DNA of 64,000 bases from an uncultured virus (IMG/VR IMGVR_UViG_3300028809_000010). Lineage: Duplodnaviria > Heunggongvirae > Uroviricota > Caudoviricetes. A program made the position numbers and the translations under genes. The notes under the pieces were generated by a model. It was not told the DNA's origin. It saw only the letters and a program-made list of their open reading frames with translations, and ran no database searches. The DNA lies in IMG/VR virus record IMGVR_UViG_3300028809_000010; one strand, 5' to 3'. Position 1 is the first letter of the stretch; every line of letters starts with the position of its first letter. This document shows positions 27,435 to 63,720 of this stretch, in pieces.

Positions 27435-27507
27435 TGGTCTGTAGCTCAGAGGACAGAGCACCGGTCTACGAAGCCGGGTGTCGCAGGTTCGACTCCTGCC
27501 AGATCAG
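27435..27507 (+). tRNA. tRNA-Arg(ACG)
   Basis: Canonical cloverleaf; CCGGT-CTACGAA-GCCGG. Confidence 0.9.
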
Positions 27508-27595
27508 CAAACGAACCCTCGGAATGTGCGCACGACCTCCGGGGTAGTAGGGATCAGCCCACGCCTCTCGAAGAAGCGAACCTCGGGCTGGATTC

Positions 27596-27681
27596 GGAAG
27601 GTGCCGCTGAATGGTCGGCAACCGGTGTCGAATACCGGGGTGGGGTAAAACCCAGGGGTTCGATCCCTCCACCTTCCTCCA
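27596..27681 (+). tRNA. tRNA-Ser(CGA)
   Basis: GGAAGGT/ACCTTCC acceptor, long variable arm, loop GTCGAAT, encoded CCA. Confidence 0.85.
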
Positions 27682-27682
27682 C

Positions 27683-27747
27683 GCCCCAACGGGTTGCTAG
27701 CGGCCACTTGATCAACGGCCGTGCTCGGGTTCGAATCCCGAGGGGGC
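27683..27747 (+). ncRNA. Truncated tRNA-like element
   Basis: GCCCC/GGGGC stem, T arm TCGGG-TTCGAAT-CCCGA, 11-nt anticodon-like loop, no D arm. Confidence 0.45.
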
Positions 27748-27750
27748 TCT

Positions 27751-27834
27751 GGAAGACAAATCGGCCGGGGGCCGAGCCGCGTTGCTAGCGCGTACGGGCA
27801 CTTGATGTCTGGGGTTCGAGACCTCTGTCTTCCG
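27751..27834 (+). tRNA. tRNA-Ser(GCT)
   Basis: GGAAGAC/GTCTTCC-G acceptor, loop TTGCTAG, long variable arm. Confidence 0.8.
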
Positions 27835-27837
27835 CAA

Positions 27838-27917
27838 CGGGGTGACCTCTTGGTAGAGGGAGCGGCCTGTAAAGCCGTGGCCGTAGTGCATTGGTGGTTC
27901 GACTCCATCCGCCCTGA
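27838..27917 (+). tRNA. tRNA-Tyr(GTA)
   Basis: GCGGC-CTGTAAA-GCCGT, long variable arm, discriminator A. Confidence 0.8.
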
Positions 27918-27919
27918 CT

Positions 27920-27995
27920 GTGGCCGAAGCTGAAGCGGATAAGCGCCCGGTTGTGGTCCGGGTAGTAGTGGGTTCGAGTCCCACCGGCCACCCCA
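27920..27995 (+). tRNA. tRNA-His(GTG)
   Basis: CCCGG-TTGTGGT-CCGGG, discriminator C, encoded CCA. Confidence 0.85.
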
Positions 27996-32923: not shown

Positions 32924-34480
32924 ATGGCTAGCTTCTGGTCCCGCCTGCGTAAGAAGGACGAACCCGAGACCCGCGACCTGTCGATCAACGACTGGATCTC
33001 GCAGATGAAGTCCCAGCAGACCTTCGGGTATCGGGGCAATCGCGAGACAGCCAAGCAAGAGTCCATCGGCGACCAATTCATCGAATACGTCCACGGCGCC
33101 TATCGCTCGAGCGGTGTGGTTTTCGCCTGCTGCCAGGCCCGCCAAATCATCTTCTCCGAGGCGCGGTTCGCGTTCCAGGACATCAGCAACTACCGCCCCG
33201 GCGACCTGGCTGACGGCCCGGAGCTGGATCTGCTCGACGTTCCCTGGGAGGGCGGCACTACCGGCGAGCTGCTGGCGCGGGCCATCCAGGACGTCGACTT
33301 GTCGGGCAACCACTACGTCGTCAAGGAGTACAAGGGCGAGGGCAAGTGGCAGCTACGCAGGCTCCGGCCCGACTGGGTCGACATCGTCCTGACGGCGGAC
33401 CCGAAGATGGCTCGCCAGGCCGACATCGACGGCTACCTCTACCGGCCGGACCGGACCGAGGACAAGAGGCTGTGGGAGTACTTCCCGGTCGACGGCTCCA
33501 ACGGCCGCATCGCGCACTGGGCACCCATTCCTGACCCCGAGGCCATGTTCCGGGGCATGTCGTGGCTGACGCCGGTTGTCCGGGAAATCATGGGCGACAA
33601 AGCCATTTCCGACCACAAGCTCAAGTTCTTCGAGAACGCCGCGACGCCGAATCTGTCGGTCAGCCTGAAAGAGACCGTTTCGAAAGAGGACTTCGAGGAG
33701 TTCGTCGAGGCGATGGATGCCACGAAGGTCGGTGTCGAACATGCCTACGAAACGCTCTATCTCGGCGGCGGCGCGGATGTTCAGGTCATCGGCGCGAACG
33801 TCCAGCAGATGGATTTCAAGGTTGTCACTGCGATCGGTGAGACCCGAATTGCCGCCGCTGCCCGAGTGCCTGCAAGTGTTGCCGGTATCTCGGAAGGATT
33901 AGGCGGCTCGAGCCTCAACGAAGGCAACTTCAACGCCGCCAAGGACCAATTCGCTTCCGGCACACTCCGTCCACTCTGGCGTTCCATTTGCGCCGCCTAC
34001 GCCCCACTGATCCAGGTGCCGAAGGGCAAGCGCCTCTGGTTCGACGACAGGGACATCAGTTTCCTGCGAGAGGACCAGCTCAAGGTCGCCCAGCGGTTCC
34101 AGATCGACGTCACCTCGGTTACCCGACTGGTGATGAACGGCTGGAAACCGGATGAGTCGGTTCGGGCCGTCCAGGAACGCAACCTGGGTCTGCTCGTCGG
34201 CGCGCATTCGGGCCTGTACTCGGTGCAGCTGCTTCCGCCGGAGGTCAGCAAGCCAGATCTCGCTGCGGCGAAAAAGGCCGAGGCGGATGCAGAACAAGCC
34301 AAGGGCGACAAGAAGAAAGACCCGCCCGCGAACCAACAAGGAACAGGCTCGAAGCGTCGACCCGGCCCCGGCAGGCCATCGAAGTCCGAAACCAAATCCG
34401 ACGAATGGCTAGACGCCGTCCGGGATGGCGAGGACTGGCGCGAGGACTGGGAGGACGAAGATGACCAAACTGACCCGTGA
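32924..34480 (+). CDS. Portal protein (HK97-like)
   Basis: VFAC, GNHY, LRPDWV, RGMSWL, FFENAATP, IAAAARVP. Confidence 0.92.
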   Translation: MASFWSRLRKKDEPETRDLSINDWISQMKSQQTFGYRGNRETAKQESIGDQFIEYVHGAYRSSGVVFACCQARQIIFSEARFAFQDISNYRPGDLADGPELDLLDVPWEGGTTGELLARAIQDVDLSGNHYVVKEYKGEGKWQLRRLRPDWVDIVLTADPKMARQADIDGYLYRPDRTEDKRLWEYFPVDGSNGRIAHWAPIPDPEAMFRGMSWLTPVVREIMGDKAISDHKLKFFENAATPNLSVSLKETVSKEDFEEFVEAMDATKVGVEHAYETLYLGGGADVQVIGANVQQMDFKVVTAIGETRIAAAARVPASVAGISEGLGGSSLNEGNFNAAKDQFASGTLRPLWRSICAAYAPLIQVPKGKRLWFDDRDISFLREDQLKVAQRFQIDVTSVTRLVMNGWKPDESVRAVQERNLGLLVGAHSGLYSVQLLPPEVSKPDLAAAKKAEADAEQAKGDKKKDPPANQQGTGSKRRPGPGRPSKSETKSDEWLDAVRDGEDWREDWEDEDDQTDP

Positions 34481-36779
34481 TTTCGAATTCCGGAGCGGCG
34501 GCGGGGACGGTGACGACGGTTTCACGCTGACTGGCTATGCGGCGGTGTTCAACCAGGACACCCAAATCCGCAGCTGGGAAGGAACATTTACCGAGCGCAT
34601 CGCCCCCGGGGCTTTCCGAAAGACGCTGCGCGAGAACCCGAACGTGATGATGCAGTTCAATCACGGGCACGACGTTCGGGTGGGCACGGTCCCGATCGGC
34701 CGCTTCACTGAAATGCGCGAAGACGAGCAGGGCCTCTTCGTCCAGGGACGACTGAACGACAACGACGTTGTGGAGCCGATCCGCCAGGCGCTGGTCGACA
34801 AGCAGATTCCCGGTATGTCGTTCCGGTTCATCGTCGTTCGCGATGAGTGGGCCGATAAGGACGGCAAGAAGATCCGCTCCGCTAACGAACTTGCCGAGAT
34901 GCTGTACAACCCGGACCACGAACGCGGGCCCCTTCAGCGCACGATCAAGGAACTCCGGATCTCCGAGGCGGGACCGGTCACTTCCCCGGCTTATCCACAG
35001 ACCTCGGTAGGCGTGCGCAGCGCGGAGGATCTTGGCGAGGCCGAGCGGGCTGACATTGCCGCCAGCTACGTCCGAACCGCGCAGCTGGAGTCCGAAGAGC
35101 GCAGCGACGATCACAGCGACCACGTTCACTTCCGTTCCGACGACGTCGAAGCCTGGCTCGAAGCCGAACGTGCCTTCAACTGGCTCGAAGCCGAACGTGC
35201 CTTCAACTGGCTCGAAGCCGAGCGCACACATCAATGGCTGGAAGCCGAAAAGGCCCATGCCGCAAAGACCCCGAGTGACGCCGACCGCCAGGTCACCTCG
35301 CTCGATACCCCGAAGTCCGACGCCGCCAAAAGCACCTCGGAGAAGCGGGACATCCCCACGAAATCCAAGAAGAAAGAGGCACGGGTTATGACCCTCGCTG
35401 AACTTCGCGAGCACCTGGCGGTCCTTCAGGGCCAGCGTGACGCACTGAACGACGAATACGGCGAACGCGCCATGTCCGACGAGGACCAGGCGACCTTCGA
35501 CAAGCTGACCTCCGACGCCGAGCGCACCGAGCGTCAGATCAAGGCCATCGAGAAGCGCCTGGCCGAGGCCAAGGGCAATGTCTCCGAGCGCACCATCGAC
35601 GGCGCCCCGGGCTTCCGCAAGAGCGTGGACGAGGACGAGCTCCACGACATGGACGCCATCCGCGCCAGCGCCCGGTCCCTCGACGACCTCGTGGTCAAGA
35701 AGACCGACGCGGCCAAGCGGATCGCCGAGCGCATGAACTGGGCCACCACGGAGCGGACCGAGTCCAAGGATCACGCGATCTACCTGCTGGACAAGGACTA
35801 CACCGGCGAGCTGGCCGAGCGCATGATCAACGCGGGCTCCAAGGCGTACGAGCGTGCCTGGTCGAAGTACGCGGCAGGCAAGGCGATCGGCGGCCTGACC
35901 TTCGAGGAGCAGCGCGCCCTCCAGCTGGGTAGCGATCCCGACGGTGGCTTCGCCGTCCCCGTTCAGCTCGACCCCACGGTCATCTGGACCTCGGCGGGTG
36001 TCGTCAACCCGATCCGCTCGCTGGCGACGGTCAAGACGATCACCGGCAAGGAATACCAGGGTGTGACCTCGGGTGGCACCACGGTCTCGCGTTCGCTGGA
36101 AGGCGCCGAGTTCGCGGAGAACACCTGGACCCTGGGCCAGCCGACCATCCGCACCGAGCGCGTGACCGGCTACACCACGTTCACCTACGAGGCCGAGGCA
36201 TGGAACGCCATCCGCGAGGAGATCGTCTTCGCGCTGCGCGACGCCAAGGACCGTGAGGAGGCCGAATCCTACACCAACGGCAACGGCACCTCGCCTGCTC
36301 CGTTCGGCCTGGTTTCGACCCACGCGGCCCCGAACCTGGTCGACACCGCCGTCACTGCCGCGTTCTCGGACGTCGACCTGTACGCGGTGAAGGAGGCTCT
36401 CGATCCTCGCTACCGTGCGGGCGCCGTCTGGATGATGGACGAGGGCATCGTTCACCAGATCCGCATGTGGGCGCAGAACGACGGCCCGGACCTGATCCAG
36501 CGCATCGACGGCCCCAACCCGGATCGCCTGCTGGGCTTCTCGGTTCACGAGAACTTCAACATGTCCTCGGCCCTGACCGCCGGTACGAAGATCGCGGTCT
36601 TCGGTGACCTGAAGGGTTACTACATCGTCGACCGCGTCGGCATGTCCATCGAGGTCAACCAGATGGTCCTCGGCCCGAACCGTCGTCCGACCGGCCAGCG
36701 TGGCATCGCCGCCTACTGGATGAACAACGCCAAGTGGTGGGTTCCCGGTTCGGCGAAGACCCTGAAGATCAAGGCGTGA
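34461..36779 (+). CDS. Prohead protease-major capsid protein fusion (internal capsid start probably at 35388)
   Basis: HK97 protease motifs GYAAVFN, FNHG, MSFRF, EAGPVTSPAY; then DGGFAVP...FGDLKGYYIVDR capsid; RBS before MTLAEL. Confidence 0.9.
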   Translation: MTKLTRDFEFRSGGGDGDDGFTLTGYAAVFNQDTQIRSWEGTFTERIAPGAFRKTLRENPNVMMQFNHGHDVRVGTVPIGRFTEMREDEQGLFVQGRLNDNDVVEPIRQALVDKQIPGMSFRFIVVRDEWADKDGKKIRSANELAEMLYNPDHERGPLQRTIKELRISEAGPVTSPAYPQTSVGVRSAEDLGEAERADIAASYVRTAQLESEERSDDHSDHVHFRSDDVEAWLEAERAFNWLEAERAFNWLEAERTHQWLEAEKAHAAKTPSDADRQVTSLDTPKSDAAKSTSEKRDIPTKSKKKEARVMTLAELREHLAVLQGQRDALNDEYGERAMSDEDQATFDKLTSDAERTERQIKAIEKRLAEAKGNVSERTIDGAPGFRKSVDEDELHDMDAIRASARSLDDLVVKKTDAAKRIAERMNWATTERTESKDHAIYLLDKDYTGELAERMINAGSKAYERAWSKYAAGKAIGGLTFEEQRALQLGSDPDGGFAVPVQLDPTVIWTSAGVVNPIRSLATVKTITGKEYQGVTSGGTTVSRSLEGAEFAENTWTLGQPTIRTERVTGYTTFTYEAEAWNAIREEIVFALRDAKDREEAESYTNGNGTSPAPFGLVSTHAAPNLVDTAVTAAFSDVDLYAVKEALDPRYRAGAVWMMDEGIVHQIRMWAQNDGPDLIQRIDGPNPDRLLGFSVHENFNMSSALTAGTKIAVFGDLKGYYIVDRVGMSIEVNQMVLGPNRRPTGQRGIAAYWMNNAKWWVPGSAKTLKIKA
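35154..35256 (+). repeat. 27-bp tandem repeat (about 4 units) encoding WLEAERAFN-like peptides
   Basis: TGGCTCGAAGCCGAACGTGCCTTCAAC twice exactly, plus two diverged copies. Confidence 0.9.
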
Positions 36780-40503: not shown

Positions 40504-40576
40504 GCGGGCGTAGCTCAACTGGAAGAGCAGCGGTCTCCAAAGCCGCCGGTTGCAGGTTCGACTCCTGTCGCCCGCG
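40504..40576 (+). tRNA. tRNA-Trp(CCA)
   Basis: Canonical cloverleaf; GCGGT-CTCCAAA-GCCGC. Confidence 0.92.
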
Positions 40577-40602
40577 CATTCAGCTGAACCCGAGGGGGAT
40601 TC

Positions 40603-43600
40603 ATGGCAACGACCTCACTCGGCTTCAACATCACCAGCAAGTACGACGGCAAGGGTCTGGCTGCGGCTCGGTCGGACCTGACGGCTTTCGCCACCCAGCT
40701 GAACAAGCTGGCGTCGAAGACCATTCGCATCAACGCCAACCTGAACGTCGACTCGGCCAAGGCAAAAGCCGACCTGGATGCCATCGCCGCGCGCCAGCTG
40801 AAGATCGACGCCGACCTCTATGTCCACGACGCCAAAGCGCGCGCCCAGGTGGCTGCGTGGGAGGCGAAGAAGGTCGAAGTCGAGATCGGTGTCCGGCTGG
40901 ACGAAGCTCAGGCCAAGGCGAAGCTCCACACGATGGCCAACTCCATCAAGAAGATGGACCTGGACCTCAAGCTGGATACGGCTGTGGCCGAGGCGAAGAT
41001 GGCCAAGCTGGCGTCGCAGACCCGGCTGATGACGATCCGCGCCGACGTCGACGCCCTGGCCGCTGAAGTCGAGCTCGAGCGGTTGAAGTCGGAATACAAC
41101 GTCATCGACATGTACGCCGATCTCAACGTCGAGATGGCCGAGGCCAAACTGCGCAACGTCCAGCTGCGGAATCAGCGCGTCCAGCTGGGCATGGACCTCG
41201 ACACCAAGATCGCCGATGCGAAGATCGCGCTGCTCGAGGCCAAGACCCGCAAGGTCGAGATGCGCGTCGACGCGGACACCAGTGTTGCCGCAGCACGGAT
41301 TCAGGCTCTCCAGCGCAATCGCTTCGTCCGGCTGTTCGTCAATGTCGACCAGGCCAATGCCGTCGCGCACCTGGCCAAGATCACCCACTTCGCCCGATAC
41401 GCCGCTCTGGGTGTCGCTGGCATCACCGCCGCCTTCTTCCTGATGGGCCAGGCCGTGGTGATGGTGGCCGCGCTGATCCAGACCGCGCTGATCGGTGGCT
41501 TGATCGCTGCCGGTATCGCCGCCGCCGTCATGGGCAAGAAGATGACCGACGAGCACACCAAGGCGACTCAGGCTGCTCAGCGTCAGGCTGCGTCGGCCGA
41601 GCGGGGACTCTCCTCGGCGTACCGCAATGCCGCATCCACCGCCCAGCAGGGCCTGCGCCAGATCGCCTCGGCGGAGAAGACCCTCGAGCAGGCACGCAAG
41701 GCATCGGTGACCACGGCCGCTCAGGGGCAGAAGTCTGTCCAGAAGGCGTACAAGGATCTCGAGTCGGCGACCAAGCAGGCAGCTCAGACCGCAGCGTCGG
41801 GGGCCCGGTCGGTCGTCACCGCCGAGAACCGCCACCGCGACGCCGTCACTCAGGCCATCCGTGTGCGGGCCAAGCTCAACGACGCCTACAAGGACAGCCA
41901 GCGCGAACTCGACAACCTGAAGATGCGCCTCCAGGGTGCGGCGGGTGACGAGAAGGGCGCTGTCATCGCGGTCCAGCGGGCCATGGAGGCGATGCACAAC
42001 CTCGGCAAGGACGGGGAGCCGGTCACGCTGCTCGACCGCGAGGAAGCGCAGAACAACATCGACCAGGCCCTCCAGAACCTCGACGAGATCCGCCTGGGCA
42101 ACCAGCAGCTCCGTGAGGATGTGGCCGAGGCCGACGCGAAGGGTGTCGAAGGCTCGGACAAGGTCGTGGCCGCCAAGGAAGCCATCCGCGACGCCGACCG
42201 AGAGGTTGCCGAGTCGGAACAGGCTGTCTCGCAGGCACGCCAGGACGCGGCTGATGCGAACGTCGCTGCCCTCGAGCGTGTGGCCGAGGCGCAGACCGGC
42301 ATCGCCGAAGCGCAGCAGGCCGCCGCCGAAGCCAACGCCGCCGCCGCCGACCGGATCATCGAGGCCGAGCAGGGTGTGGCCGAAGCCAAGCAGCAGGCCG
42401 CCGAAGCCAATGCCCAAGCGGCAGAGCAGATCATCGCTGCGCAGGAAGCTGTCACGGCCGCGCAGACCGAGCTGAACGAGGCGTACAACAAGCAGAACGG
42501 CGCCCTCGCCCAGACCATGCGCTGGTTCCAGACGATCACTCAGCCGATGCAGGGTGCTCTCCGCGCGGCGATGGAACAGCTGAAGCAGAAGGCGATCGAG
42601 CTGACCCCGGCCCTCCAGGGCATGTTCGCTCAGGTCTCCCCGCTGGTGAAGCCGTTCGCCGAGGGCCTGAGTGGTCTGGCCGAGCGGGCTATCCCCGGCG
42701 TGACCGATTCGCTGCGCCAGTCGATGCCGATGATGAACGGCTTCCGCGACGGCATGGGAACCCTCGGCGCCAAGACCGGCGAGATGTTCCGGGGCTTCGG
42801 TCAGGGCTCGGAAGGGCTCGGGCAGACCTGGCGCGTCGTCGGTGGGCAGTTCGGTACGTTCCTGGCCAGCATCGGCGGGTTCGTGGGGAAGTTCTCCAGC
42901 GAGTCCGCGACCAGCCTGGACAAGACCCTCCAGGGCGTAAACAACCTCACCTCGGGGATGCTCAACGGCCTGGGCCCGGCGCTTCAGGCGATGGCCGGTG
43001 GCAACTCGATCTGGTTCAGCCTGTTCACCGCGATCGGTTCGTTCTTCGAGAAGATCGGCCCGAGCCTGGGTGCCTTCACGGAAGCCCTGGGCGGCGCGCT
43101 GGGTCCGACGATCGAGAAGCTGGGTGGGTCGCTCGGCATTCTGGTCGCGGCCGGACTCCAGGGCATGTCGGTCATGCTGCCGGTGGTCACTCCGCTGATT
43201 GTCGGTGCGGCCCAAGCGATCCTGTCGTTCGTCCAGTTCCTCGAAGGGCTGGGCCCGGTGCTGCCGATCGTCATGGGCGTCATCATGGGGATGCGGTTGC
43301 TCAGCCTGGCGACCACGGTCCTGGCTGGCTCGAAGATGGTCGTCACGGCCGCCACGGTCGCCTGGAAGATCGCCATGATCGCCGTCCGGGCTGTCATCTT
43401 CGTGGTGAGGGCTGCGGCGTTCGCTCTGCATCTGACCTACCTGCTGCTCACCTCGAGCGCGATGGCTCAGACCGTGGCGACGAAGGCTGTTGCGGCGGCA
43501 ACGATTATCGGCGCCAACGCGATGAAGGTTCTCCGGATCGCGATGTTCGCTCTGTCGTCTCACCCGCTGGTGGCGCTGTTCGTGGCCCTCGGCGCGGTGA

Positions 43601-46095
43601 TCATGATCCTGGTCGCGCGTGCGGGTGGACTCTCGGGTATCTGGGAGAAGATCAAGGCTGGCTGGAACGGTCTGGTCAACTTCTTTCAGCCGACGATCGA
43701 CTTTTTCAAGACACTGATCGGCGGAATCATCCATTGGTTCCAACACCTTTGGGATGTTCTGCTCGGACATTCGATCATTCCCGACATCGTCAACGGAGCC
43801 AAGAAGTGGTTCGGGATGATCTGGGACATCGTCGGGATTATCGTCCGGATCGTCGGCGCGGTGATCGCGAAGTGGGTCGAGTTCTTCACCTTCATGGTCA
43901 AGATCTTCAAGCTCTACCTCGACGTCGTATTCGCTGTGTGGGGCTGGATCTGGGACAACATCCTGTCGAAGGTCGTCGCCGTCATCGGGTGGGTGCTCGG
44001 CAAGATCGGTGACTTCTTCCCGCTGATCGTCGCGGCGTTCAACCTCTACAAGGACATCGTCTTCGCTGTCTGGAGCTGGCTGTGGGACAACATCTTCTCG
44101 AAGGTGTTCGACGTCCTCGGCTGGATCAAGAACAAGTGGGATGAATGGTGGCCGGTCTTCAAGCTGTCCTTCGAGATCCTGCGCGACACCGTCATGGATA
44201 TCTGGAATTGGCTGTGGGACAACGTTCTTACCAAGATCGGGGACGCTCTCGGCTGGGTCAAGGACCGATTCGATCTCTGGTGGGAAGCCTTCAAGTTCGG
44301 TTTCGAGCTCCTGCGTGACACGCTCATGGGGATCTGGAATTGGCTGTGGGACAACATCCTCACCAAGATCGGTGACGCGATCGGCAAGGCCCAGGAGAAG
44401 TTCACCGCTTTCAAGGACAAGTTCGGCGAAATCCTCGAGAACCTGCGGTCGAAAGCCGAAGAGGTCTGGAACAAGATCAAGGAGACTTTCGCCCGGCCGA
44501 TCAACGTGATCATCGGATTCATCAACGACAAGATCCTCGACAACATCGGCATGGGCGACAAGAAGATCCCCAAGATCGAGGGCTACGCCGACGGTGGCAC
44601 CATCCCCGGTGCAGGCCACGGCAGGGCAGACGATCGGCTGGCTCGAGTCTCTTCGGGCGAGTACATCGTCAATGCCCGCGCTGCCGAAGTGAATCGTCCT
44701 CTGCTGGACCAGATCAACTACCGGGGCTTCATTCCGAAGTTCGCCGACGGTGGTCCGGTCGAATGGATGTCCAACTGGGTCCGTGGCGTGGAGCCGTCGA
44801 TGACAATGACCTCGGGTCTGCGTTTCACCGACAACGGCTACCACTCCAGGGGCATGGCTGCGGACTTCTCCAACGGCACCGCGACCACGCCGGAAATGCA
44901 GAACCTCGCCAAGCGGATCAATGAAACCTGGGGCGCCCAAACGCTCGAGCTGATCCACACCGGCCCCTACAACATCAAGGACGGCGCGAACGTCGGCGAT
45001 GGTATGGGGGTCTACGGCGCGGCGACAATGGCCGGTCACGACAACCACGTCCACTGGGCAGTTCCTGGGCCGCTGGACGATTCGCAGTCCGGGCCGAGTC
45101 TGCTGGGCAAGGTCGGCAACTTCCTCGGCGGTGTGTTCAACAAGGGCCGCGAGCTGATGTCGGCGCTGTTCCAGCGGCTGAGTCAGCCTGTCCTGGATGG
45201 AATTCCCGATCCCTTCACACCCGGTATGGGCGACAAGATGGGGCGGGCTCCCAAGGGGCTGGCAACGATGGTCCGCGACCGCATGGCCGAAATGATCCGA
45301 GGCAAAGAGAACACCGGCGGAATGCTCGGCGGTGATATCGGAGGACTCGTCCCTGACGGCGAGCGGCTGAAGATCATCGAAGAGGCCATGCGCATCACCG
45401 GCACTCCTCCTCCTGATGGCGCGGAGGACTGGGTCAGGGGCATGAACACCCTGATCACGCGTGAGTCCGGCTGGAACGCAGGGATTATCAACAACTGGGA
45501 CAGCAACGCCGCTGCGGGAATGCCGTCGCAGGGTCTGGCCCAGGTGATCCCGCCGACGTTCAACGCGCACAAGGTCCCGGGGCACGACAACATCCTCGAT
45601 CCGGTGTCGAACGTGGCGGCGAGTATCAACTACATCAAGTCGCAGTACGGCTCGATCAAGAATGTCCAGCAGGCCAACGCCAACATGCCTCCCAAGGGCT
45701 ACAAGGACGGCACGGAGAACGCCACTCCAGGCTGGGCGATGGTCGGCGAAGAGGGTCCGGAAATGGTCAAGTTCCGGGGCGGCGAGGAAGTTGTGCCGCT
45801 CCAGGATTTCACCTCGAAGCTCTCTTCGGCAGCGGAATCCACGGGTCTGCGGACCAAGGCGGAGACGGCTCTGACAGATGCGGGCAAGTCGATGTTCGAC
45901 ACCTTCTTCCAAGACCTGACCGGCGGCGGCTACGAAAGTGGCTTCCTCGGTCAGCTGGTGAAGCAAGGCATCGACTACGGCGGCAAGGTCGCGTCCCAGA
46001 GCGTCACCAACAACTGGAACGTGGTCGACGTCGACGAGGCAATGCGCAAATACAAGCAGCAGCAAAAGGAACAGGCGATCGGCTACGATTACTGA
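40603..46095 (+). CDS. Tape measure protein with C-terminal peptidase-like and lytic transglycosylase domains
   Basis: 1830 aa, Ala-rich, WxWLWDN repeats; HSRGMAADF...HDNHVH; RESGWN...GLAQVIPPTF. Confidence 0.95.
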   Translation: MATTSLGFNITSKYDGKGLAAARSDLTAFATQLNKLASKTIRINANLNVDSAKAKADLDAIAARQLKIDADLYVHDAKARAQVAAWEAKKVEVEIGVRLDEAQAKAKLHTMANSIKKMDLDLKLDTAVAEAKMAKLASQTRLMTIRADVDALAAEVELERLKSEYNVIDMYADLNVEMAEAKLRNVQLRNQRVQLGMDLDTKIADAKIALLEAKTRKVEMRVDADTSVAAARIQALQRNRFVRLFVNVDQANAVAHLAKITHFARYAALGVAGITAAFFLMGQAVVMVAALIQTALIGGLIAAGIAAAVMGKKMTDEHTKATQAAQRQAASAERGLSSAYRNAASTAQQGLRQIASAEKTLEQARKASVTTAAQGQKSVQKAYKDLESATKQAAQTAASGARSVVTAENRHRDAVTQAIRVRAKLNDAYKDSQRELDNLKMRLQGAAGDEKGAVIAVQRAMEAMHNLGKDGEPVTLLDREEAQNNIDQALQNLDEIRLGNQQLREDVAEADAKGVEGSDKVVAAKEAIRDADREVAESEQAVSQARQDAADANVAALERVAEAQTGIAEAQQAAAEANAAAADRIIEAEQGVAEAKQQAAEANAQAAEQIIAAQEAVTAAQTELNEAYNKQNGALAQTMRWFQTITQPMQGALRAAMEQLKQKAIELTPALQGMFAQVSPLVKPFAEGLSGLAERAIPGVTDSLRQSMPMMNGFRDGMGTLGAKTGEMFRGFGQGSEGLGQTWRVVGGQFGTFLASIGGFVGKFSSESATSLDKTLQGVNNLTSGMLNGLGPALQAMAGGNSIWFSLFTAIGSFFEKIGPSLGAFTEALGGALGPTIEKLGGSLGILVAAGLQGMSVMLPVVTPLIVGAAQAILSFVQFLEGLGPVLPIVMGVIMGMRLLSLATTVLAGSKMVVTAATVAWKIAMIAVRAVIFVVRAAAFALHLTYLLLTSSAMAQTVATKAVAAATIIGANAMKVLRIAMFALSSHPLVALFVALGAVIMILVARAGGLSGIWEKIKAGWNGLVNFFQPTIDFFKTLIGGIIHWFQHLWDVLLGHSIIPDIVNGAKKWFGMIWDIVGIIVRIVGAVIAKWVEFFTFMVKIFKLYLDVVFAVWGWIWDNILSKVVAVIGWVLGKIGDFFPLIVAAFNLYKDIVFAVWSWLWDNIFSKVFDVLGWIKNKWDEWWPVFKLSFEILRDTVMDIWNWLWDNVLTKIGDALGWVKDRFDLWWEAFKFGFELLRDTLMGIWNWLWDNILTKIGDAIGKAQEKFTAFKDKFGEILENLRSKAEEVWNKIKETFARPINVIIGFINDKILDNIGMGDKKIPKIEGYADGGTIPGAGHGRADDRLARVSSGEYIVNARAAEVNRPLLDQINYRGFIPKFADGGPVEWMSNWVRGVEPSMTMTSGLRFTDNGYHSRGMAADFSNGTATTPEMQNLAKRINETWGAQTLELIHTGPYNIKDGANVGDGMGVYGAATMAGHDNHVHWAVPGPLDDSQSGPSLLGKVGNFLGGVFNKGRELMSALFQRLSQPVLDGIPDPFTPGMGDKMGRAPKGLATMVRDRMAEMIRGKENTGGMLGGDIGGLVPDGERLKIIEEAMRITGTPPPDGAEDWVRGMNTLITRESGWNAGIINNWDSNAAAGMPSQGLAQVIPPTFNAHKVPGHDNILDPVSNVAASINYIKSQYGSIKNVQQANANMPPKGYKDGTENATPGWAMVGEEGPEMVKFRGGEEVVPLQDFTSKLSSAAESTGLRTKAETALTDAGKSMFDTFFQDLTGGGYESGFLGQLVKQGIDYGGKVASQSVTNNWNVVDVDEAMRKYKQQQKEQAIGYDY

Positions 46096-46105
46096 TTCCT
46101 ACGAC

Positions 46106-46145
46106 AAGCGGGAGCTTTCGACTTCGGTTGAGGGCTCCCGCTTTT
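46106..46145 (+). terminator. Intrinsic terminator after the tape measure gene
   Basis: AAGCGGGAGC...GCTCCCGCTTTT. Confidence 0.7.
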
Positions 46146-46161
46146 GCGTTTGGAGGTCTTT

Positions 46162-47115
46162 GTGGAACTCGAGCTTCCCGAAGAGATGGAGATCATCTAC
46201 GAAGGCTGGAACGGCAGAACGTTTCACTGGTCCGGTGGTGAACTCGCTGGCAAAGAAGGCGTGAGCCTGGCGCTGCCGGAAGCTGGCGTCGATTTCGAGG
46301 ATATGTACGAATCGCCTTTCGAGACGATCTACAACTCCACGGCATTCGAGGTCGGCGGAAGGTACGGCGGCGTCCGCGAGAACATGATGGAGTTCACCCT
46401 CGCGTTCCATATCCGGCCGACCGTGAACACACCCTGGCGGATCATCGAGTCCCGATTCCGCAAGGCCCTGCATCACAAGAACACCGGCGGCAAGATCCGG
46501 GTGAAGATCGTCGGCGAATCCGAGCGCTGGCTCAACGTTCGACTCCGCTCCCAGCCGAAGCTGAAGCTGAAGCGTGATCCGATCGTGGGGCGGTACGGCC
46601 TGCTGATCGTGACCTTCGTTGCCAACTTCCCCCGCTGGGTCGAAGACGATTACACCGCCGAGTACGTCACCACCACGGACACAACCGCTGGTGGCGACGA
46701 GCTGGCGATGCTGTGGATCTCGAATCCGACGAACAACGAAGCCTGGCCGAAGTGGGTCTGCCAAGCCGGTAACGCCGACATCGTCTGGACCCTGCCGGAC
46801 TTCTCCTGGGGCGATGACCGCTTCGAGATGGCCGAGGCCCACGACGACCGGATGCTCGACCTGCCCGAGCTGATCCTGGGCGAGCACGTGGTTGTCGACA
46901 CCGACGAGATGACGATGGCAGGACAGGTTGTCTCCAGCCTCGACACCCAGGTCTACCTGCGCATGGATGGCCGCGAGTTCTTATATCCGCTTCCCGCTTA
47001 CCTCGATCCCGTGCAGGTGCCCATCTCGGTGACCGGCGCGCAGATCGGCAATCTGATCCAGGTTCGCATTCCCCGGACTTGGTCGCGCCCGTGGGGGCTG
47101 GAGGGGGGTGACTGA
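46162..47115 (+). CDS. Minor tail protein (distal tail, Dit-like)
   Basis: First gene after the tape measure; RWLNVRL...SNPTNNEAWPKW...WTLPDFSW...WSRPWG. Confidence 0.85.
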   Translation: MELELPEEMEIIYEGWNGRTFHWSGGELAGKEGVSLALPEAGVDFEDMYESPFETIYNSTAFEVGGRYGGVRENMMEFTLAFHIRPTVNTPWRIIESRFRKALHHKNTGGKIRVKIVGESERWLNVRLRSQPKLKLKRDPIVGRYGLLIVTFVANFPRWVEDDYTAEYVTTTDTTAGGDELAMLWISNPTNNEAWPKWVCQAGNADIVWTLPDFSWGDDRFEMAEAHDDRMLDLPELILGEHVVVDTDEMTMAGQVVSSLDTQVYLRMDGREFLYPLPAYLDPVQVPISVTGAQIGNLIQVRIPRTWSRPWGLEGGD

Positions 47116-48818
47116 TGTCTGTCACCGCTATCGACCCGGACCAGGTATTCGACGAGATCATCAACCGCGAGTTCGGTCGGCGCGAAAGGCGTGTGGGCCA
47201 GCCCGCTGTGAAGTTGATGGACGGCAACATGGTCCTGCGGGGCCGCGCCACCCAGATCATCCGCGCCGACTTCAAAGAGATCGAGTGGGACGTCGGTATC
47301 GGCACGCTGGAGATGCCGGAGGAGTACTACCTCTCGAAATGGGTTGCCGCCCACGATGAGCGCACCACCCAGAACATCCACGTCGCTGTCGAAAAGGACG
47401 GCATCAGGTGGACCGGGCGCATGGAGCGCTACGAGATCGAGACCAACAAGGACGGCCTGACAATCGTCCGGTGCATCTTCAAGCACGATTTCGCCGAGCT
47501 CCAGAACATCCTCTGCTGGGCCAATCCGTTTTTGCCCGCCGAGGTGCAATTTCCGAAGGTGTTTCTACTTTTCGGGAGCGCGAAATTCTGCCTCAAGGCC
47601 GCCCTTTTTTGTAACATCCTTCGCCTCGAGAACAACCTCTGGAGTCTGCCCGACAACCCCCTCGATCCCGACGAGTGGAACGACTACCTGAACCCGTTGG
47701 ATCAAAGTCAGTGGACCATCGCGGTGCATCCGGATTTGGCCGATGATGCTAGTCCGCTAGCGCTGTTCTACAGCCGGTTCAAGGACTTCGTCTCGGCCTC
47801 CAAGGACATCGGCCAGGACGCTCAGCTGACCCCGGTCCTGCGGCGCTGGTTCGAAGGTGACGATCCGCCGTGGCCGGGCGCCAACTTACGTCATGGCTGC
47901 CTGGTCGTGGATTTCGAAGACAACTCGGGCTGGACGACCGGAACTGCCTTCGAGGGAAGCCTTTTCACGGGTCTGATTCACGCGCTGGTCAACATCGGCA
48001 GTGACGGCATGACCGAGGGCATCGACATCATGGATGACCCGATCACGTACCCGCCGGAGTACTTCCAGTCGGGTTACAAGGGTTCGTTCCCGTCGGCTCC
48101 GTCGCTGATCTTCCGTGCGGCCGAGGGTTCGGCGATCCAGTCCAGCAATTTCACTAACCGCGCCGCTGGAGCACTTCAGCACGTCACCGGTGGACATTCG
48201 ATGCCGGGGGTCGTCGGTGCCCTGCTCTGAATAAGGGTGGGGCACCGGCGATCTCGCCATTTCAACGAAATGATCTCGGCCGCAATCCAAATGGCCGGTG
48301 ACCTGATCGCAGCAATGATCGGCGTTCCCCCCGTTGGCGGTGCTGCGGACGCAATTCTGAAACCCCTTTATACAGACGTCTTTTTAGCATTTATGCACTG
48401 GAAAGACTTGGGGCGCAAGGCAACTCTCGGCGACTTCTGCTACCAGGAGCGCTGGGCCGAAGGTAGCGACAGGGCCTATACGTTATCCGCCATTGTCGCA
48501 CTCAGGACGTCTATCTGGGCGACCAGGCAGACTTTCACGCATCGACTGGAAGTGGCAGACGGTGCGCCGTGGCTGGTGGGTCAGCGCGGGCGCGGCCATT
48601 TCTACCTCGGCCACCGCGTCGGCTCCGTCCCCAAGGGCACGCCCAAGGGGAAGATCTACGTCGACCGCGTCACCGAAATCGGCCTCACCTGGGACCGGCA
48701 GACAACGCCTACGTGGCAGGTAATTATCGGCGAGCGCGTCATGGAAGATCCAATCCTCAAGGCGCTCAAGAAGGTCAAGGAAATCGCGGGTATCGCCCGT
48801 GACCTCGGCGTGCTCTGA
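47115..48818 (+). CDS. Minor tail/baseplate hub protein interrupted by a 51-nt in-frame hairpin insertion containing TGA (two ORFs in the track: 47115-48230 and 48237-48818)
   Basis: WANPFLPAEVQFPK...GGHSMPGV | NEMISAAIQMAGD...LYTDVFLAF...GHFYLGHRVG; both ORFs are in the same frame. Confidence 0.85.
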
Positions 48819-50982: not shown

Positions 50983-51139
50983 ACGAATGTGAATGCCCGC
51001 ATCCGGACCTCTGCACTCACCCGAGTCACGACCTGCTCCGCTTCCGGAACGACAAGGTCACCCTGGAGCGAGTGCTGGATTCCATCGAGTCGGACTACGA
51101 GAAGCTCCGGCAGATCGAGAAGATCGTGGAGGCCATGCC

Positions 51140-52861
51140 ATGACCCGCACCACAGTAGATTTCGCTGCCAAGCTGATATCGCCGCAAGCCATCAAGGACG
51201 CCGGGCACGAGGGCGTGATGGTCTACGTCTCGCCGAGTCGGCCCGGGTCGAACTTCGCGGCCAAGCCGATCCAGCGGGCGTTCACTAATGAGTGCCGTTC
51301 AATCGGATTGAACATCGTCTCGATCTGGCAGTTCGGCAAGCCCGGCAACGCCCAGGCCCCGAGCGACTGGACCACCGGTTTCGAGGGCGGCCAGCGGATG
51401 GCGACCGAAGCTCAGGCCCGGCACCTCCAGGCAGGCGGACCCGATCACGCACCGATCTTCTTCGCCGTCGACGAGGACTTGAGCATCGACAACTGGAACC
51501 GGACGGCCGTCGAGTTCTTCCGGGGCGTCAACAGCGTCCTGGGCGTGCAGCGGACCGGCGTCTACGGATCGTCGAAGGTGTGCTCCTGGGCGGTGGAGGA
51601 CGGCGTCATCGGACGTAGCCGTACCCACGGGCGCTTCTGGGCGTGGCAGACGCGGGCGTGGTCCGGAGGGGAGCTCTCGCCCGAGGCCGTCCTGTTCCAG
51701 CGCGTCATCGACACACCCTCCAACCCCGGCCCCTTGATCGACGGCGCCTCCGTGGACGTCAACGACATCTGGGCCGACGACTACGGACAGTGGAGCGACA
51801 AGGCTCCGGAAGGCCCTTCCATGGCACAGAAACCCGACTTCCAAGAGATCGACCGCTTCGGCAATTCCCGCTCCAACCGCTTCAACGCACGCGTCACCAA
51901 CTGGCTGATCCACACCCAGGAGGGCAACGGCACTGCGGAGTCGCTGGCGGGCTACCTCAACAACCAGGCCAACGGCGTCTCCTACCACTACACGGTCCGC
52001 GACGGCGTGGTTGTGAATGTGGTCGACACCGACTACGCCAGCTGGTCCGTCCTGGACGCCAACAGCTACACGATCAACCTCTGTTTCGCGGGCAGCTACG
52101 CCAGCTGGACTCGGGAGCAGTGGCTCGAGCGTGAACACGACATCCGGATCGCGGCGTGGCTGGCGGTGCAGGACGCGAAGAAGTACGGCTTCTCCGTCGA
52201 GGTCATCGCGCCCCCGTACCACCAGGCGCCGGGCATCTCCGATCACCGCTACGTCACCGAGGAGCTGGGGATCGGCACGCACACCGACGTCGGCCGCAAC
52301 TTCCCGTGGGATGTGCTGGCGCGGTTCGTCGCGGAGTACACCGAGGCCGGTCCGATCCGGGTTCCGAACGCGATCAACGACTGCGAGGCCGCCAACGCCT
52401 GGCTGGGGGAGCGGTTCACCAAGGAGGAGCTGCGCACGCCCGACGGCAAGGGCCGCTTCGTCCAGTACGACAACGGCTTCATCTACTGGTCTCCGGACTC
52501 GGGCGCGCACCCCATCCCGAAGGATCTGTTCCCGAAGTTCGGTGATCTCGGCTGGGAGGTCGGTCCGCTGGGTTACCCGACGACCGATCCGACGAAGCTC
52601 ACCGATGGTTGGGTCCAGGGCTTCCAGGGCGGCGCGCTCTACAAGAAGCTCGACCAGCCCGCCCGGTGGGTGCACGGCGAGATCCGCAACCGCTGGAACC
52701 GGACCGGCTTCGAGAACGGCCCGCTGGGTTGGCCCACCTCCGACGAGTTCCCCTTCGGCGACGGTGCCGCGCAGGACTTCGAGAAGGGCCGCATCTACTG
52801 GGCCCCGAAGCCGACTGTCGTGGTCCTGGCCGACGGCTCGGGGCTCAAGGACGCGGCATGA
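51140..52861 (+). CDS. Endolysin (LysA): DUF1906/GH25-like muramidase, Amidase_2 and LGFP repeats
   Basis: PIFFAVD, GVYG, WQT.AWS, VDVN; IHTQEG, VSYHY, DH, HTDVG; LGYP/LGWP repeats. Confidence 0.92.
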   Translation: MTRTTVDFAAKLISPQAIKDAGHEGVMVYVSPSRPGSNFAAKPIQRAFTNECRSIGLNIVSIWQFGKPGNAQAPSDWTTGFEGGQRMATEAQARHLQAGGPDHAPIFFAVDEDLSIDNWNRTAVEFFRGVNSVLGVQRTGVYGSSKVCSWAVEDGVIGRSRTHGRFWAWQTRAWSGGELSPEAVLFQRVIDTPSNPGPLIDGASVDVNDIWADDYGQWSDKAPEGPSMAQKPDFQEIDRFGNSRSNRFNARVTNWLIHTQEGNGTAESLAGYLNNQANGVSYHYTVRDGVVVNVVDTDYASWSVLDANSYTINLCFAGSYASWTREQWLEREHDIRIAAWLAVQDAKKYGFSVEVIAPPYHQAPGISDHRYVTEELGIGTHTDVGRNFPWDVLARFVAEYTEAGPIRVPNAINDCEAANAWLGERFTKEELRTPDGKGRFVQYDNGFIYWSPDSGAHPIPKDLFPKFGDLGWEVGPLGYPTTDPTKLTDGWVQGFQGGALYKKLDQPARWVHGEIRNRWNRTGFENGPLGWPTSDEFPFGDGAAQDFEKGRIYWAPKPTVVVLADGSGLKDAA

Positions 52862-59105: not shown

Positions 59106-59188
59106 GGACCGGTAGCTCAACGGAAGAGCACTGCCGCGCGGATCAACAGGTACAGAAGACGCAGGTTCGAATCCTGCCCGGTCCCCCA
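59106..59188 (+). ncRNA. tRNA-like RNA with canonical acceptor, D and T arms and CCA but an enlarged anticodon loop
   Basis: GGACCGG/CCGGTCC-C-CCA, TAGCTCAACGGAAGAGC, GCAGG-TTCGAAT-CCTGC; about 13-nt loop. Confidence 0.75.
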
Positions 59189-62458: not shown

Positions 62459-62846
62459 GCGGGCGGATCAAGATCGTCAACGACCGCGTTCTTCTCGGCG
62501 GCGAGGAGCTGACCGAAACCGACGCCAGAGACCTGATTGCCGAGCTCGAGGTCACGCTCAGCCTTCTCGAGCAGTGGCGCTACGACAAGTGGCGGCGGGA
62601 GGTCCGGGAGCGCTACGGGCCGAAGGAGGTGACTGATGGCGCGTAAACGCAACGACCGCAAAGGAACCCGCCAGACCGAGGCACGGGAGCGGCAGCTGGC
62701 CAGGGATCTCCGTACCACCGAGGAGCAGCTGGACGAGCTCAATGTCCGCTCCGGCCTGGACCGCGATGCCTGCCGCGAACGTGCCCGCCTCTACCTGCGT
62801 TCGGAGCTGGAGGAGCTGCACTTCGAAGCATGGGAGGGAGCCCTCG

Positions 62847-63293
62847 ATGTCCATTCCTGACATGTCCTGGATGGATCGGGCCAGCTGCATCGGCCGGGCA
62901 GGGGAATTCGACGCAGAACGGCTCAACGATCTCGGCATCCGCAGCCGCCGGTATCAGGCTCAGCTCCTCTGCAATGGCTGCCCGGTCATGCGGCAATGCA
63001 ACCTCCAGGCCCAAGAGCAAGGCGCGCGAGGAGTGGTCCGGGGCGGTCGCACATACACCGACGACCGGGTCAGGCCCAAGGATGATCGCTGGACGTATCC
63101 GGTGCCGACGGCCAAGGTGCTCGACGACCGCCGGACCGAGCAGTACGAAGCCCGCTACACCCGGATCTCCTCGGCGAAGTGGGAAGTCGACGGCGAGGAG
63201 ATCCGGGCGGAGGAAGCGTTGGCAGCTGCCAGTCGGCGTCGCCCGTACAGCAGCCAAGCCGCTATCTACCGATACGCATTGGAGCAGCGATGA
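62847..63293 (+). CDS. WhiB-family protein
   Basis: WMDRASC...LCNGCPVMRQC...GVVRGG. Confidence 0.85.
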   Translation: MSIPDMSWMDRASCIGRAGEFDAERLNDLGIRSRRYQAQLLCNGCPVMRQCNLQAQEQGARGVVRGGRTYTDDRVRPKDDRWTYPVPTAKVLDDRRTEQYEARYTRISSAKWEVDGEEIRAEEALAAASRRRPYSSQAAIYRYALEQR

Positions 63294-63306
63294 GGGGCCT
63301 TCTCCG

Positions 63307-63720
63307 GTGAGGTATCAGGCCCTGTCCGGCGAGTGGCTGGAAGGGTCTCCGGTCGGCCCCGGTCCGAAAGCCAGGACTGTCTGGGTGATGCGGCCGGATC
63401 AGACCTTCGCTGTGGTACAGCCTGCGACCGGCGCCAACCACGGAACCGAAGTCGAGTGGGATCAGCCGCAGTTCCTCGAGCCGGTGCCCAGGCAGGTGGA
63501 GGACTTCGCCCGGGAGATCGTCGACCGCCACCGCGAACTGGTGCTGACCTTCCGGCAATGCGGCATCGAGACCACCCCGGCCGGACCGGAATACGAAGCG
63601 GCCGTAGCCATTCTGAAGCAAGCCGAAGCCGCCAGGGCCAGCCGGACCCCGTTCATCAACGCCCACGGCGGCAACAAAGCCATATCCGACAAACGATTCA
63701 AAGAGCTATCAGGAGAGTGA
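63307..63720 (+). CDS. Hypothetical protein
   Basis: ORF follows WhiB; start uncertain. Confidence 0.5.
   Translation: MRYQALSGEWLEGSPVGPGPKARTVWVMRPDQTFAVVQPATGANHGTEVEWDQPQFLEPVPRQVEDFAREIVDRHRELVLTFRQCGIETTPAGPEYEAAVAILKQAEAARASRTPFINAHGGNKAISDKRFKELSGE

Follow-up and report, generated by a model that had tools for sequence, protein, structure and literature searches.

Analysis of a 64,000-nt stretch of DNA from an uncultured tailed phage (IMG/VR record IMGVR_UViG_3300028809_000010; the whole stretch is referred to below as the window) reveals a gene for a predicted baseplate hub protein that is interrupted by a 51-nt hairpin with an in-frame stop codon at its apex. The hairpin is one of 26 related elements found at six sites of the hub gene, in 24 homologous genes from Nocardia and Rhodococcus prophages and soil viral contigs. 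Comparison of their sequences indicates that these elements constitute a previously undescribed family of mobile inserts of ~50 nt. With moderate confidence, we interpret the hairpins as mobile coding-gap elements decoded by translational bypassing, such that ribosomes would skip the gap and complete one contiguous protein. An earlier note on this DNA had proposed that the hairpin must be skipped or removed if one conserved protein is to be made. The comparative evidence agrees, and it adds a point missed by that first reading, namely that the element is one member of a mobile, multi-site family.

A hairpin interrupts a predicted baseplate hub gene

The window represents an actinophage genome or prophage (63% G+C, with a serine integrase and a lysin at 50993-52861). 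Inspection of its tail region reveals two open reading frames (ORFs) in the same frame, 47115-48230 (371 aa) and 48237-48818 (193 aa), with a TGA codon between them (Table 1). The sequence surrounding this codon is predicted to fold into an unbroken stem closed by a 5-nt loop, with a free energy (dG) of -44.8 kcal/mol and a z-score of -6.4; none of 200 shuffled sequences equalled it. The split frame and the 22-bp stem had both been described in the earlier note and are confirmed in every detail. The insert corresponds to exactly 17 extra codons between GGHSMPGV and NEMIS, where the gap boundary is ambiguous in that a leftward shift of 1-2 nt is possible through a shared 'TC'. Deletion of the insert had been expected to restore a contiguous motif, and the single annotated coding sequences of Blue (GGQSMPGV-NEAIS), REQ3 (GGNSMPMV-NETIG) and Fryberger (GGHSMPGV-NEAIS) are contiguous at this position.

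In tblastn searches, the first ORF aligns with 2,489 cultured-phage records, with alignments that end at residues 366-370, and the second with 1,984 records, with alignments that begin at its residue 10 (N10). The two ORFs also divide the family PF14594 (Sipho_Gp37) between them, matching model positions 2-249 (E 1.6e-52) and 249-370 (E 1.1e-29), respectively. An AlphaFold (AF2) model of the contiguous homologue P0006, with a predicted local distance difference test score (pLDDT) of 75.6, was submitted to Foldseek and matched the Bxb1 tail tip (9d93_Oa, E 1.4e-57), the Douge baseplate, Mu gp44, T4 gp27 and VgrG. Because the Pfam family matches both halves and Foldseek returns these structures, the interrupted gene can be identified as that of the baseplate hub (Tal), a tail-tip component that is essential. 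The tape-measure gene (40603-46095) is followed by a 323-aa ORF (46144-47115) and then by the hub gene.

Sequence identical to the interrupted gene, including the insert, is present in an IMG/VR contig (100% over 1704 nt). The same sequence occurs in a soil-metagenome contig, possibly from the source sample, at a k-mer depth of 141 (the phage reaches 141-187). Comparison of four DNA sequencing runs found the junction covered by X2 only, again possibly the source sample. Sequencing error is an unlikely cause of the insert, mainly because 25 related elements are present in independent assemblies.

Related elements recur at six sites

Site 1, PGV/NE (PGV/DE in three genes), is occupied in 16 genes, and the other five sites of the gene were found through frame breaks in tblastn alignments. 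The earlier note had raised the prospect of hairpin insertions recurring at PGV/NE with covarying stems; insertions of variable length do recur there, and across the family the stems covary. Two elements each are present in L065 and L152, where every exon piece is open. In one Nocardia sp. genome, two prophages on separate contigs carry the element at different sites, PGV/NE in L006 and LLF/GP in L057.

Nine of the 120 best-matching database homologues of this ORF 1 half (that of the window and eight others) are 363-371 aa long and end in ...GGHSMPGVV followed by 0-5 residues. DNA was retrieved for 68 loci from species-representative genomes and 80 IMG/VR loci, plus pattern-scan matches, and all junctions were inspected. 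In these two unbiased samples, at least one element is found in 9 of 68 genome loci and in 9 of 80 viral loci, where the viral count includes the twin of the window and one duplicate of L009. A loose, degenerate 17-nt pattern returned at least 119 stretches each from viral and metagenome contigs, and among the matches listed only L158, L224, L256 and L258 are real. A search of genome contigs with a single protein found no carrier; the alignment-based search succeeded. No further copy exists inside the window at up to 3 mismatches or by covariance model, and megablast of the window gene against 50,697 phage records gave no match.

Two other observations accompany these searches. An identical, unrelated structured sequence of ~70 nt starting CCTTTGCCTGC lies at ~900-980, outside hub genes, in four metagenomic viral contigs (L412, L416, L418 and L421) and is a chance match of the site-2a pattern. 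The hub gene at locus L064 (2501-3573), from a strain of Nocardia cyriacigeorgica, is fragmentary, with residues 2-181, 208-264 and 129-184 of the two parts in different frames, and represents a truly decayed copy in contrast to the element-bearing genes.

Distribution suggests repeated gain or loss

A maximum-likelihood tree of 128 homologues requires at least 12 gains or losses to explain its 16 element-bearing rows. Sister genes in two pairs, L133/L084 and L086/L088, are 86-87% identical in DNA and differ only in the presence of the element. The element of the window is 87% identical to that of L073 and 80% identical to that of L066, with 300-nt flanks that are 57-60% and proteins that are 34-46% identical.

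A covariance model built from 19 elements was used to survey their genomic range. Across 647 kb (the window and 99 loci), it gives 36 hits at E<=1, comprising the 21 elements known at that point and 15 opposite-strand echoes, all within the hub gene. In five host genomes (41 Mb), where 150 of 1,255-2,114 candidates per genome were scored, only seven known elements and their echoes are recovered. A scan of 151 genomes of the family, with stricter filters and 37 candidates scored per genome, yields two known carriers and one false hit. A genome-wide miniature inverted-repeat transposable element (MITE) was rejected on the basis of the host-genome scans, which contain no extra copies. The false hit of the family scan, L404, is an intergenic terminator-like hairpin after a stop codon.

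A Pfam scan of 26 ORFs flanking 11 element-bearing loci (within 2.5 kb on either side) found no HNH, GIY-YIG or VSR domain, the domains present being Phage_gene29, lysin and similar only. The Y1 (HUH, IS200/IS605) transposase PF01797 was detected in none of five host genomes and none of five viral records. An IS200/IS605-derived hairpin MITE or repetitive extragenic palindromic (REP) element was rejected, given that there is no Y1 transposase and the element is not multicopy. Since no nuclease or transposase is linked to the element, the simplest guess is that it probably spreads by recombination between homologous genes. In a test for co-conversion, the first 10 codons beside the junction are 87-97% and 77-87% identical in carriers versus 67-83% and 53-87% at empty sites, a difference too weak to use.

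Element anatomy and selection on RNA structure

The stem measures 20-29 bp across the 26 elements. In every one, its foot includes the last exon-1 codon (GTN Val, TTT Phe, TGG Trp or CTT Leu), which is the proposed take-off codon; L152 site 2a is the exception among the folds in that the third base of this codon is left unpaired. The common plan is a gap that begins with G, a C-rich 5' arm (GCCCC), an A-rich loop of 3-9 nt and a G-rich 3' arm (GGGGC), where the loop of L009 extends to 31 nt with a side stem. The stem is followed by a mostly A-rich spacer of 5-12 nt and by a single triplet that adjoins exon 2. The gaps measure 48 nt (two elements), 49 nt (three), 51 nt (six), 52 nt (seven), 53 nt (five) and 54, 56 and 72 nt (one each), and 16 of the 26 are not a multiple of three. 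A frame-0 stop lies within the gap in 16 of 21 elements examined and in 0 of 3 elements added later. That is to say, the apex stop is common, not universal. In the frame of exon 1, translation of the C-rich 5' arm often yields Pro-Pro motifs (CPPG, APPG, YPPA, WPPT); such motifs are stalling sequences that depend on elongation factor P.

Predicted folding energies range from -38 to -58 kcal/mol across the elements. Compensatory double changes are present in 13 of 15 consensus pairs (alifold with a plain MAFFT alignment of 19 elements). Among these are the three pairs formed by the take-off codon, which covaries with its partner in the combinations GTC:GAT, GTT:AAC, GTG:CAC, TTT:AAA and TGG:CCA, where columns 1-3 of the alignment covary with columns 43-45. 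The stems of 21 elements contain 424 Watson-Crick pairs, 55 G.U pairs, 4 A.C pairs and one other single mismatch, whereas a decaying DNA palindrome is expected to give G.T and A.C equally often. The mean predicted fold is -46.5 kcal/mol for the sense strand versus -39.8 kcal/mol for the antisense strand (-42.7 versus -23.9 in the window). This excess of G.U over A.C, together with the better folding of the sense strand, indicates that selection acts on the sense single strand, most simply the mRNA, as the earlier note had surmised from the G-U pairs of the window. Rfam cmscan of 47900-48600 at E up to 10 returned only chance miRNA-like hairpins below 18 bits and no ribozyme.

A triplet before exon 2 resembles the take-off codon

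In 14 of 15 sequence groups, made from the first 21 elements, the triplet immediately before exon 2 matches the last exon-1 codon at two or more of three positions (mean 2.0). Controls at 12 other gap offsets and 9 exon-2 offsets match in only 0-3 of the 15 groups (means 0.09-0.96). The GTC take-off and near-matched TTC landing that had been suggested for the window fit this family-wide pattern. Synonymous pairs read by the same tRNA (GTT>GTC, TTT>TTC and CTT>CTC) account for ~10 of 21 elements, and the others are near-cognate. The 5' copy always encodes a conserved residue. The 3' copy often encodes Phe, Ala, Cys, Leu or stop instead of Val, Trp or Phe, which argues that the 3' triplet is not translated. 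The resemblance between the two triplets is kept despite spacers and stems that have diverged past recognition between groups.

Both exons remain under purifying selection

In all 12 site-1 loci that are sequenced far enough, exon 2 is open for 182-186 codons; the three loci added later have 184 open codons. The ratio of non-synonymous to synonymous substitution rates (dN/dS) for exon 2 is 0.12-0.28 in 6 of 7 element-bearing pairs (dS 0.5-2.1), where the pair L006/L121 has saturated dS and gives no ratio. For the last 220 codons of exon 1, dN/dS is on a par with that of exon 2, at 0.13-0.32 in all seven pairs. In the four pairs drawn from L013/L086/L020 and L022/L065, element identity (73-89%) tracks flank identity (76-85%), which argues that element and gene have co-diverged, with both exons under purifying selection throughout.

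Between the last stop in the frame of exon 2 and the Asn codon, 7 of 13 site-1 loci (L013, L020, L065, L066, L073, L086 and L224) contain no ATG, GTG or TTG, and in L013 and L086 only three codons separate the two. Independent initiation of exon 2 is therefore not available in these loci.

The sites themselves differ in their context. Among 544 seven-codon conservation windows, site 1 (SMPGVNE) is in the second most conserved (rank 6), NPF/LP and LCW/SN fall in the fifth most conserved (ranks 11-15), and the other three sites are average (ranks 84-250). In the model of P0006, site 1 forms the first turn (N-cap) of helix 368-386, two sites lie in strand 150-155 and one lies in helix 156-172. 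A chain break or a translated insert at these structured positions would be disruptive according to the model. Since the sites occupy conserved, structured parts of an essential hub protein, exact restoration would be needed.

Table 1. Parts of the interrupted hub gene in the window, sites of the hairpin elements with their carriers, and pairs of take-off and landing triplets
Feature	Position	Strand	Basis, carriers or remarks
Exon 1 of predicted baseplate hub (Tal, Gp37-like) gene	47115..48212	+	Ends ...GGHSMPGV; ORF list and translation, PF14594, tblastn through residue 366
Last exon-1 codon GTC (Val366), proposed take-off	48210..48212	+	Pairs in stem base with GAT 48250-48252; folds and covariation
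22-bp hairpin	48207..48255	+	Predicted fold; loop GAAUA, 6 G.U pairs
51-nt coding gap (hairpin element proper)	48213..48263	+	Missing from contiguous homologues; covariance model 47.7 bits, E 2e-7
In-frame UGA across last stem pair and apical loop	48228..48230	+	Terminates 371-aa ORF
Triplet TTC directly 5' of exon 2, proposed landing	48261..48263	+	Two of three positions equal take-off codon
Exon 2 of hub gene	48264..48818	+	Starts NEMISAAIQMAGD..., 184 aa plus stop; PF14594, tblastn, dN/dS
Site 1, PGV/NE			Window, L006, L013, L020, L022, L065, L066, L073, L081, L086, L121, L224, L258, L407, L408, L409
Site NPF/LP			Five: L065, L133, L152, L419, L426
Site (V/I)W/IL			Two: L139, L149
Site LLF/GP			L057
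Site WCL/KT			L152
Site LCW/SN			L009, gap 72 nt
Take-off>landing GTT>GTC			Four of first 21 elements, and L409
Take-off>landing GTC>TTC			Five, window among them
Take-off>landing GTC>GTC; GTC>GTG; GTG>TTG; GTG>GCG			
Take-off>landing GTT>GCC and GTC>GCC			L407 and L408
Take-off>landing TTT>TTC; TTT>TTA; TTT>CTC; CTT>CTC			TTT>TTC three; TTT>CTC two
Take-off>landing TGG>TGT; TGG>TGA; TGG>TGC			

Translational bypassing as the favoured reading

Because 16 of the 26 gaps shift the frame, only skipping or removal of the gap can give the conserved protein. Under translational bypassing, ribosomes would read exon 1 to the GUC of Val366 in the hairpin foot, where the peptidyl-tRNA would detach. The ribosome would then cross the ~50-nt hairpin and A-rich spacer without decoding them, and the tRNA would re-pair with a matching or near-matching triplet before exon 2 (UUC in the window). 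Translation would restart at AAC (Asn) to give one contiguous protein with the junction AAGALQHVTGGHSMPGVNEMISAAIQMAGD..., while ribosomes that do not hop would enter the gap, terminate at the loop UGA and yield a 371-aa fragment. The comparison establishes the anatomy, recurrence, covariation, strand bias and mobility of the elements and the continued selection on both exons; the skipping of the gap during translation, and its efficiency, are inferred.

Bypassing is favoured because it alone explains why a noncoding triplet able to pair with the tRNA is kept exactly before exon 2, and because it accounts for the retention of the take-off codon in the stem foot as well. In gap size, in-gap stop, mobility and conserved sites, the elements furthermore resemble T4 gene 60 and its relatives, which also argues for this reading. 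Take-off at the codon before the loop stop was rejected, as no matching in-frame landing site exists.

Several observations weigh against bypassing. Take-off is followed in all elements by an ordinary sense codon (GUC, GUU, GUG, GCC or GGC) rather than a stop or rare codon, and the nearest in-frame stop lies 2-22 codons past take-off and is absent in 5 of 21 elements. The stem of 20-25 bp that holds the take-off codon must largely melt for the codon to enter the P site, and therefore the T4 picture of a small A-site hairpin is not directly transferable. At site 1, no Shine-Dalgarno-like patch occurs consistently at 5-9 nt upstream of the landing triplet. About half of the landing triplets are near-cognate only, including that of the window, where GUC>UUC has a first-position mismatch, and the triplet match might instead reflect a 3-bp duplication of the target site. 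Cultured phages give no support either: in a blastn search with four element types, none of 50,697 records carries an element (a partial match, H76 in phage Syra333, is taken as chance). All 1,698 records matched by tblastn of P0008 cover 80% or more of the query, and in the 60 best matches the gene is in one piece. The viability of element-bearing phages thus has to be judged from the signature of selection only. A less radical form of novelty may apply, in which bypassing proceeds by a new mechanism, a hop over a 20-25 bp hairpin without a stop or hungry codon at take-off.

Alternative explanations

One alternative, which we consider unlikely, holds that the gap is not restored, with hub pieces made and assembled separately (two in the window, three in L065 and L152) or with the element precisely excised from the DNA in some copies. 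Purifying selection on both exons needs their expression, not their joining, and the window does contain an in-frame GTG at 48237. The gap hairpin is also flanked by short direct repeats, an arrangement that is a classic substrate for slippage deletion. In addition, the T4 topoisomerase split by MobA works in the form of separate subunits (10.1101/2022.08.31.505936). Against separate pieces, exon 2 has no conserved start codon or ribosome-binding site, with L013 and L086 offering three sense codons only, and the sites fall inside a beta-strand, a helix and a helix N-cap in a conserved motif. Against excision, the transposase and covariance scans described above found neither Y1 transposase nor multiple copies in 41 Mb, and the G.U bias indicates RNA rather than duplex DNA.

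Removal at the RNA level, by which the element would be a tiny non-self-splicing intron cut by a cellular or phage endonuclease and ligase, with the exons rejoined after the last exon-1 codon, strikes us as quite unlikely. Selection on sense-strand RNA structure (55 G.U versus 4 A.C) would suit such an intron; splicing accounts for intact exons and for gap lengths unconstrained by frame no less well than bypassing does, and sites in conserved motifs recall homing introns. These points are set against the lack of any Rfam or ribozyme match and a typical size of 48-56 nt, which is below that of a group I or II core. The junctions are moreover asymmetric, as the 5' junction is buried 3-7 bp deep in the stem and the 3' junction falls 8-15 nt past it, and therefore neither RNase III nor a bulge-helix-bulge endonuclease fits. 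Excision of the RNase III type or otherwise symmetric about the hairpin, as well as skipping of the hairpin by RNA polymerase, was worked through by hand on the window sequence and rejected, as the remainder is out of frame. Splicing also gives no reason for the kept triplet match, and we know of no such mRNA splicing in bacteria.

The involvement of the phage RNA ligase, which the earlier note had proposed, is not upheld: PF09414 is present in 0 of 9 element-bearing viral records, five of which are at least 94% complete, versus 3 of 5 element-free viral records. The ligase of the window, a 186-aa ORF at 1096-1656 (+) (RNA_ligase, PF09414, E 1.8e-13), is unrelated to the hairpin element. We found nothing in favour of the further proposal of a post-transcriptional switch on tail assembly. 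The most novel form of RNA-level removal, which we likewise hold to be quite unlikely, is that the elements are the first bacterial protein-free, ribozyme-free introns, with host enzymes excising a 50-nt mRNA hairpin that spreads among hub genes in the manner of a homing intron.

It is improbable that the elements are gene-killing insertions in defective prophages, such that the hub gene is dead in all carriers. This reading draws on the restriction of the elements to prophages and metagenomic contigs and on their patchy distribution, which with at least 12 gains or losses may include many recent insertions. Dead genes would not be expected to retain intact exon-2 ORFs in 15 of 15 cases, with frames broken nowhere except at the elements, nor dN/dS of 0.12-0.24 at dS 0.5-1.0 in the co-diverged L013/L086/L020 and L022/L065 pairs. 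One carrier record (G003) is a 100%-complete genome with direct terminal repeats, and the phage of the window reaches a k-mer depth of 141-187 in a soil metagenome. The covarying stems and kept landing triplet, for their part, imply selection on the element itself.

Readthrough of the UGA, proposed in the earlier note, could apply to the window copy only, where it would leave a 17-residue insert containing ...VGALLWIRVGHR..., and we regard it as very improbable even there. The gap of the window is in frame at 51 nt with a single UGA, and a gene for tRNA-Trp(CCA) at 40504-40577 could possibly serve. Across the family readthrough fails, given the 16 of 26 gaps that are out of frame and the 5 of 21 elements without an in-frame stop. 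Among the close relatives of the window element, L066 has two in-frame stops, and a shift of frame results from the gaps of 49, 52, 53 and 56 nt in related elements. No suppressor anticodon exists among the phage tRNAs, and the insert would fall in the first turn of a helix within a conserved motif. Selenocysteine recoding does not fit, since the UGA lies in the loop and not 5' of the hairpin as a bacterial selenocysteine insertion sequence (SECIS) requires, and neither does a group I or II self-splicing intron, whose ribozyme core exceeds ~200 nt, as the element is 51 nt long and has no Rfam core.

Other features of the window

The phage encodes seven tRNAs, all on the + strand. Five form a cluster at 27435-27995 (+), namely Arg(acg), Ser(cga), Ser(gct), Tyr(gta) and His(gtg); Trp(cca) lies just upstream of the tape-measure gene, and Pro(cgg) lies at 59106-59188. 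A 784-aa ORF at 34425-36779 (+) encodes a protease-capsid fusion, with Peptidase_S78 at residues 29-198 and Phage_capsid at residues 507-744. A 17-bp terminator-like hairpin with a T-rich tail (46106-46143, +) separates the tape-measure gene from the next tail gene.

Three further inverted repeats are present, and none fits the covariance model of the elements. The first (1-71) is located at the start of the window and has 24-nt arms of 96% identity with a spacer of 23 nt, the second (63155-63212) has 22-nt arms within the ORF at 62830-63720, and the third (21851-21898) is an AT-rich palindrome with 20-nt arms near the integrase.

Relation to known systems and significance

One precedent for bypassing is T4 gene 60 together with its homologues among Myoviridae topoisomerase genes (Manning & Atkins, 10.1101/2022.08.31.505936). 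The T4 system shares with the hub elements a gap of ~50 nt in one gene, a take-off codon in a stem-loop, related take-off and landing triplets, a frequent in-gap stop and insertion into a highly conserved part of an essential gene. Both occur in mobile DNA with patchy, apparently recent insertions, and a truncated product is expected from failed hops. The differences are also substantial. The hub elements have no sequence homology to the T4 gap and interrupt a tail hub of Actinomycetota siphophages rather than a topoisomerase. Their stems of 20-25 bp contrast with a short stem-loop, the landing triplet is often a two-of-three match, and no stop or hungry codon directly follows take-off. No linked homing endonuclease (MobA-like) lies within 2.5 kb, and six sites are occupied versus one. 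Bypassing is established for gene 60 and proposed for the hub elements.

A second precedent comes from an actinophage, as a bypass linked to the codon UUA has been proposed for the terminase gene of the Streptomyces phage phiHau3, with partial support from mass spectrometry of E. coli material (Antonov et al. 2023, PMC10732093). Noncoding blocks likewise interrupt an essential, highly conserved gene with contiguous homologues, but these blocks span 7-10 nt, the rare UUA codon acts as the trigger, and mobility is not evident (PMC10732093). A speculative remark on bypassing also concerns the tape-measure gene of Corndog (PMC4351075). A full-text literature search found no description of hairpin gaps in a hub gene; it found bypassing only for T4-like topoisomerase genes, the phiHau3 terminase, mitochondrial byps and the Corndog remark.

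The byps of Magnusiomyces capitatus mitochondria, reportedly described by Lang et al. 2014 and Nosek et al. 2015, are said to be short G+C-rich hairpin inserts of tens of nt, located at many coding-sequence positions with several per gene, and to derive from mobile GC clusters, with matching take-off and landing triplets and lengths not limited to multiples of three. The hub elements would resemble them in each of these respects of hairpin, number per gene, triplets and length. The byps reportedly belong to a yeast mitochondrion whose code is altered and whose gaps open with unassigned codons, whereas the hub elements belong to bacterial viruses with the standard code, lie in one gene only and begin the gap with ordinary sense codons. 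Cluster J mycobacteriophages reportedly carry homing group I introns and inteins in structural genes. Such actinophage introns and inteins are comparable in being selfish, in occupying conserved parts of capsid and tail genes, in being removed to leave the protein unchanged and in being patchy. In contrast, they extend over hundreds of nt and contain ribozyme cores or protein-splicing domains, and the hub elements have neither a ribozyme match nor coding capacity.

Efficient bypassing of long gaps is known from very few systems, namely T4 gene 60 and its relatives and the yeast mitochondrial byps, with the short gaps of phiHau3 as candidates. Current annotations list the carrier genes as truncated or split 'minor tail proteins', and therefore gene callers and tools that assess prophage integrity will score intact phages as defective. 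Should the gaps prove to be spliced rather than bypassed, they would represent a new kind of bacterial mRNA processing. If the bypassing interpretation is true, the elements would constitute a natural family of at least 26 diverged gaps of ~50 nt at six sites in one bacterial-virus gene, and would demonstrate that a linked nuclease is not required for the spread of such elements. They would then offer a ready-made comparative mutagenesis of stems, loops, spacers and take-off and landing pairs for learning what makes ribosomes hop.

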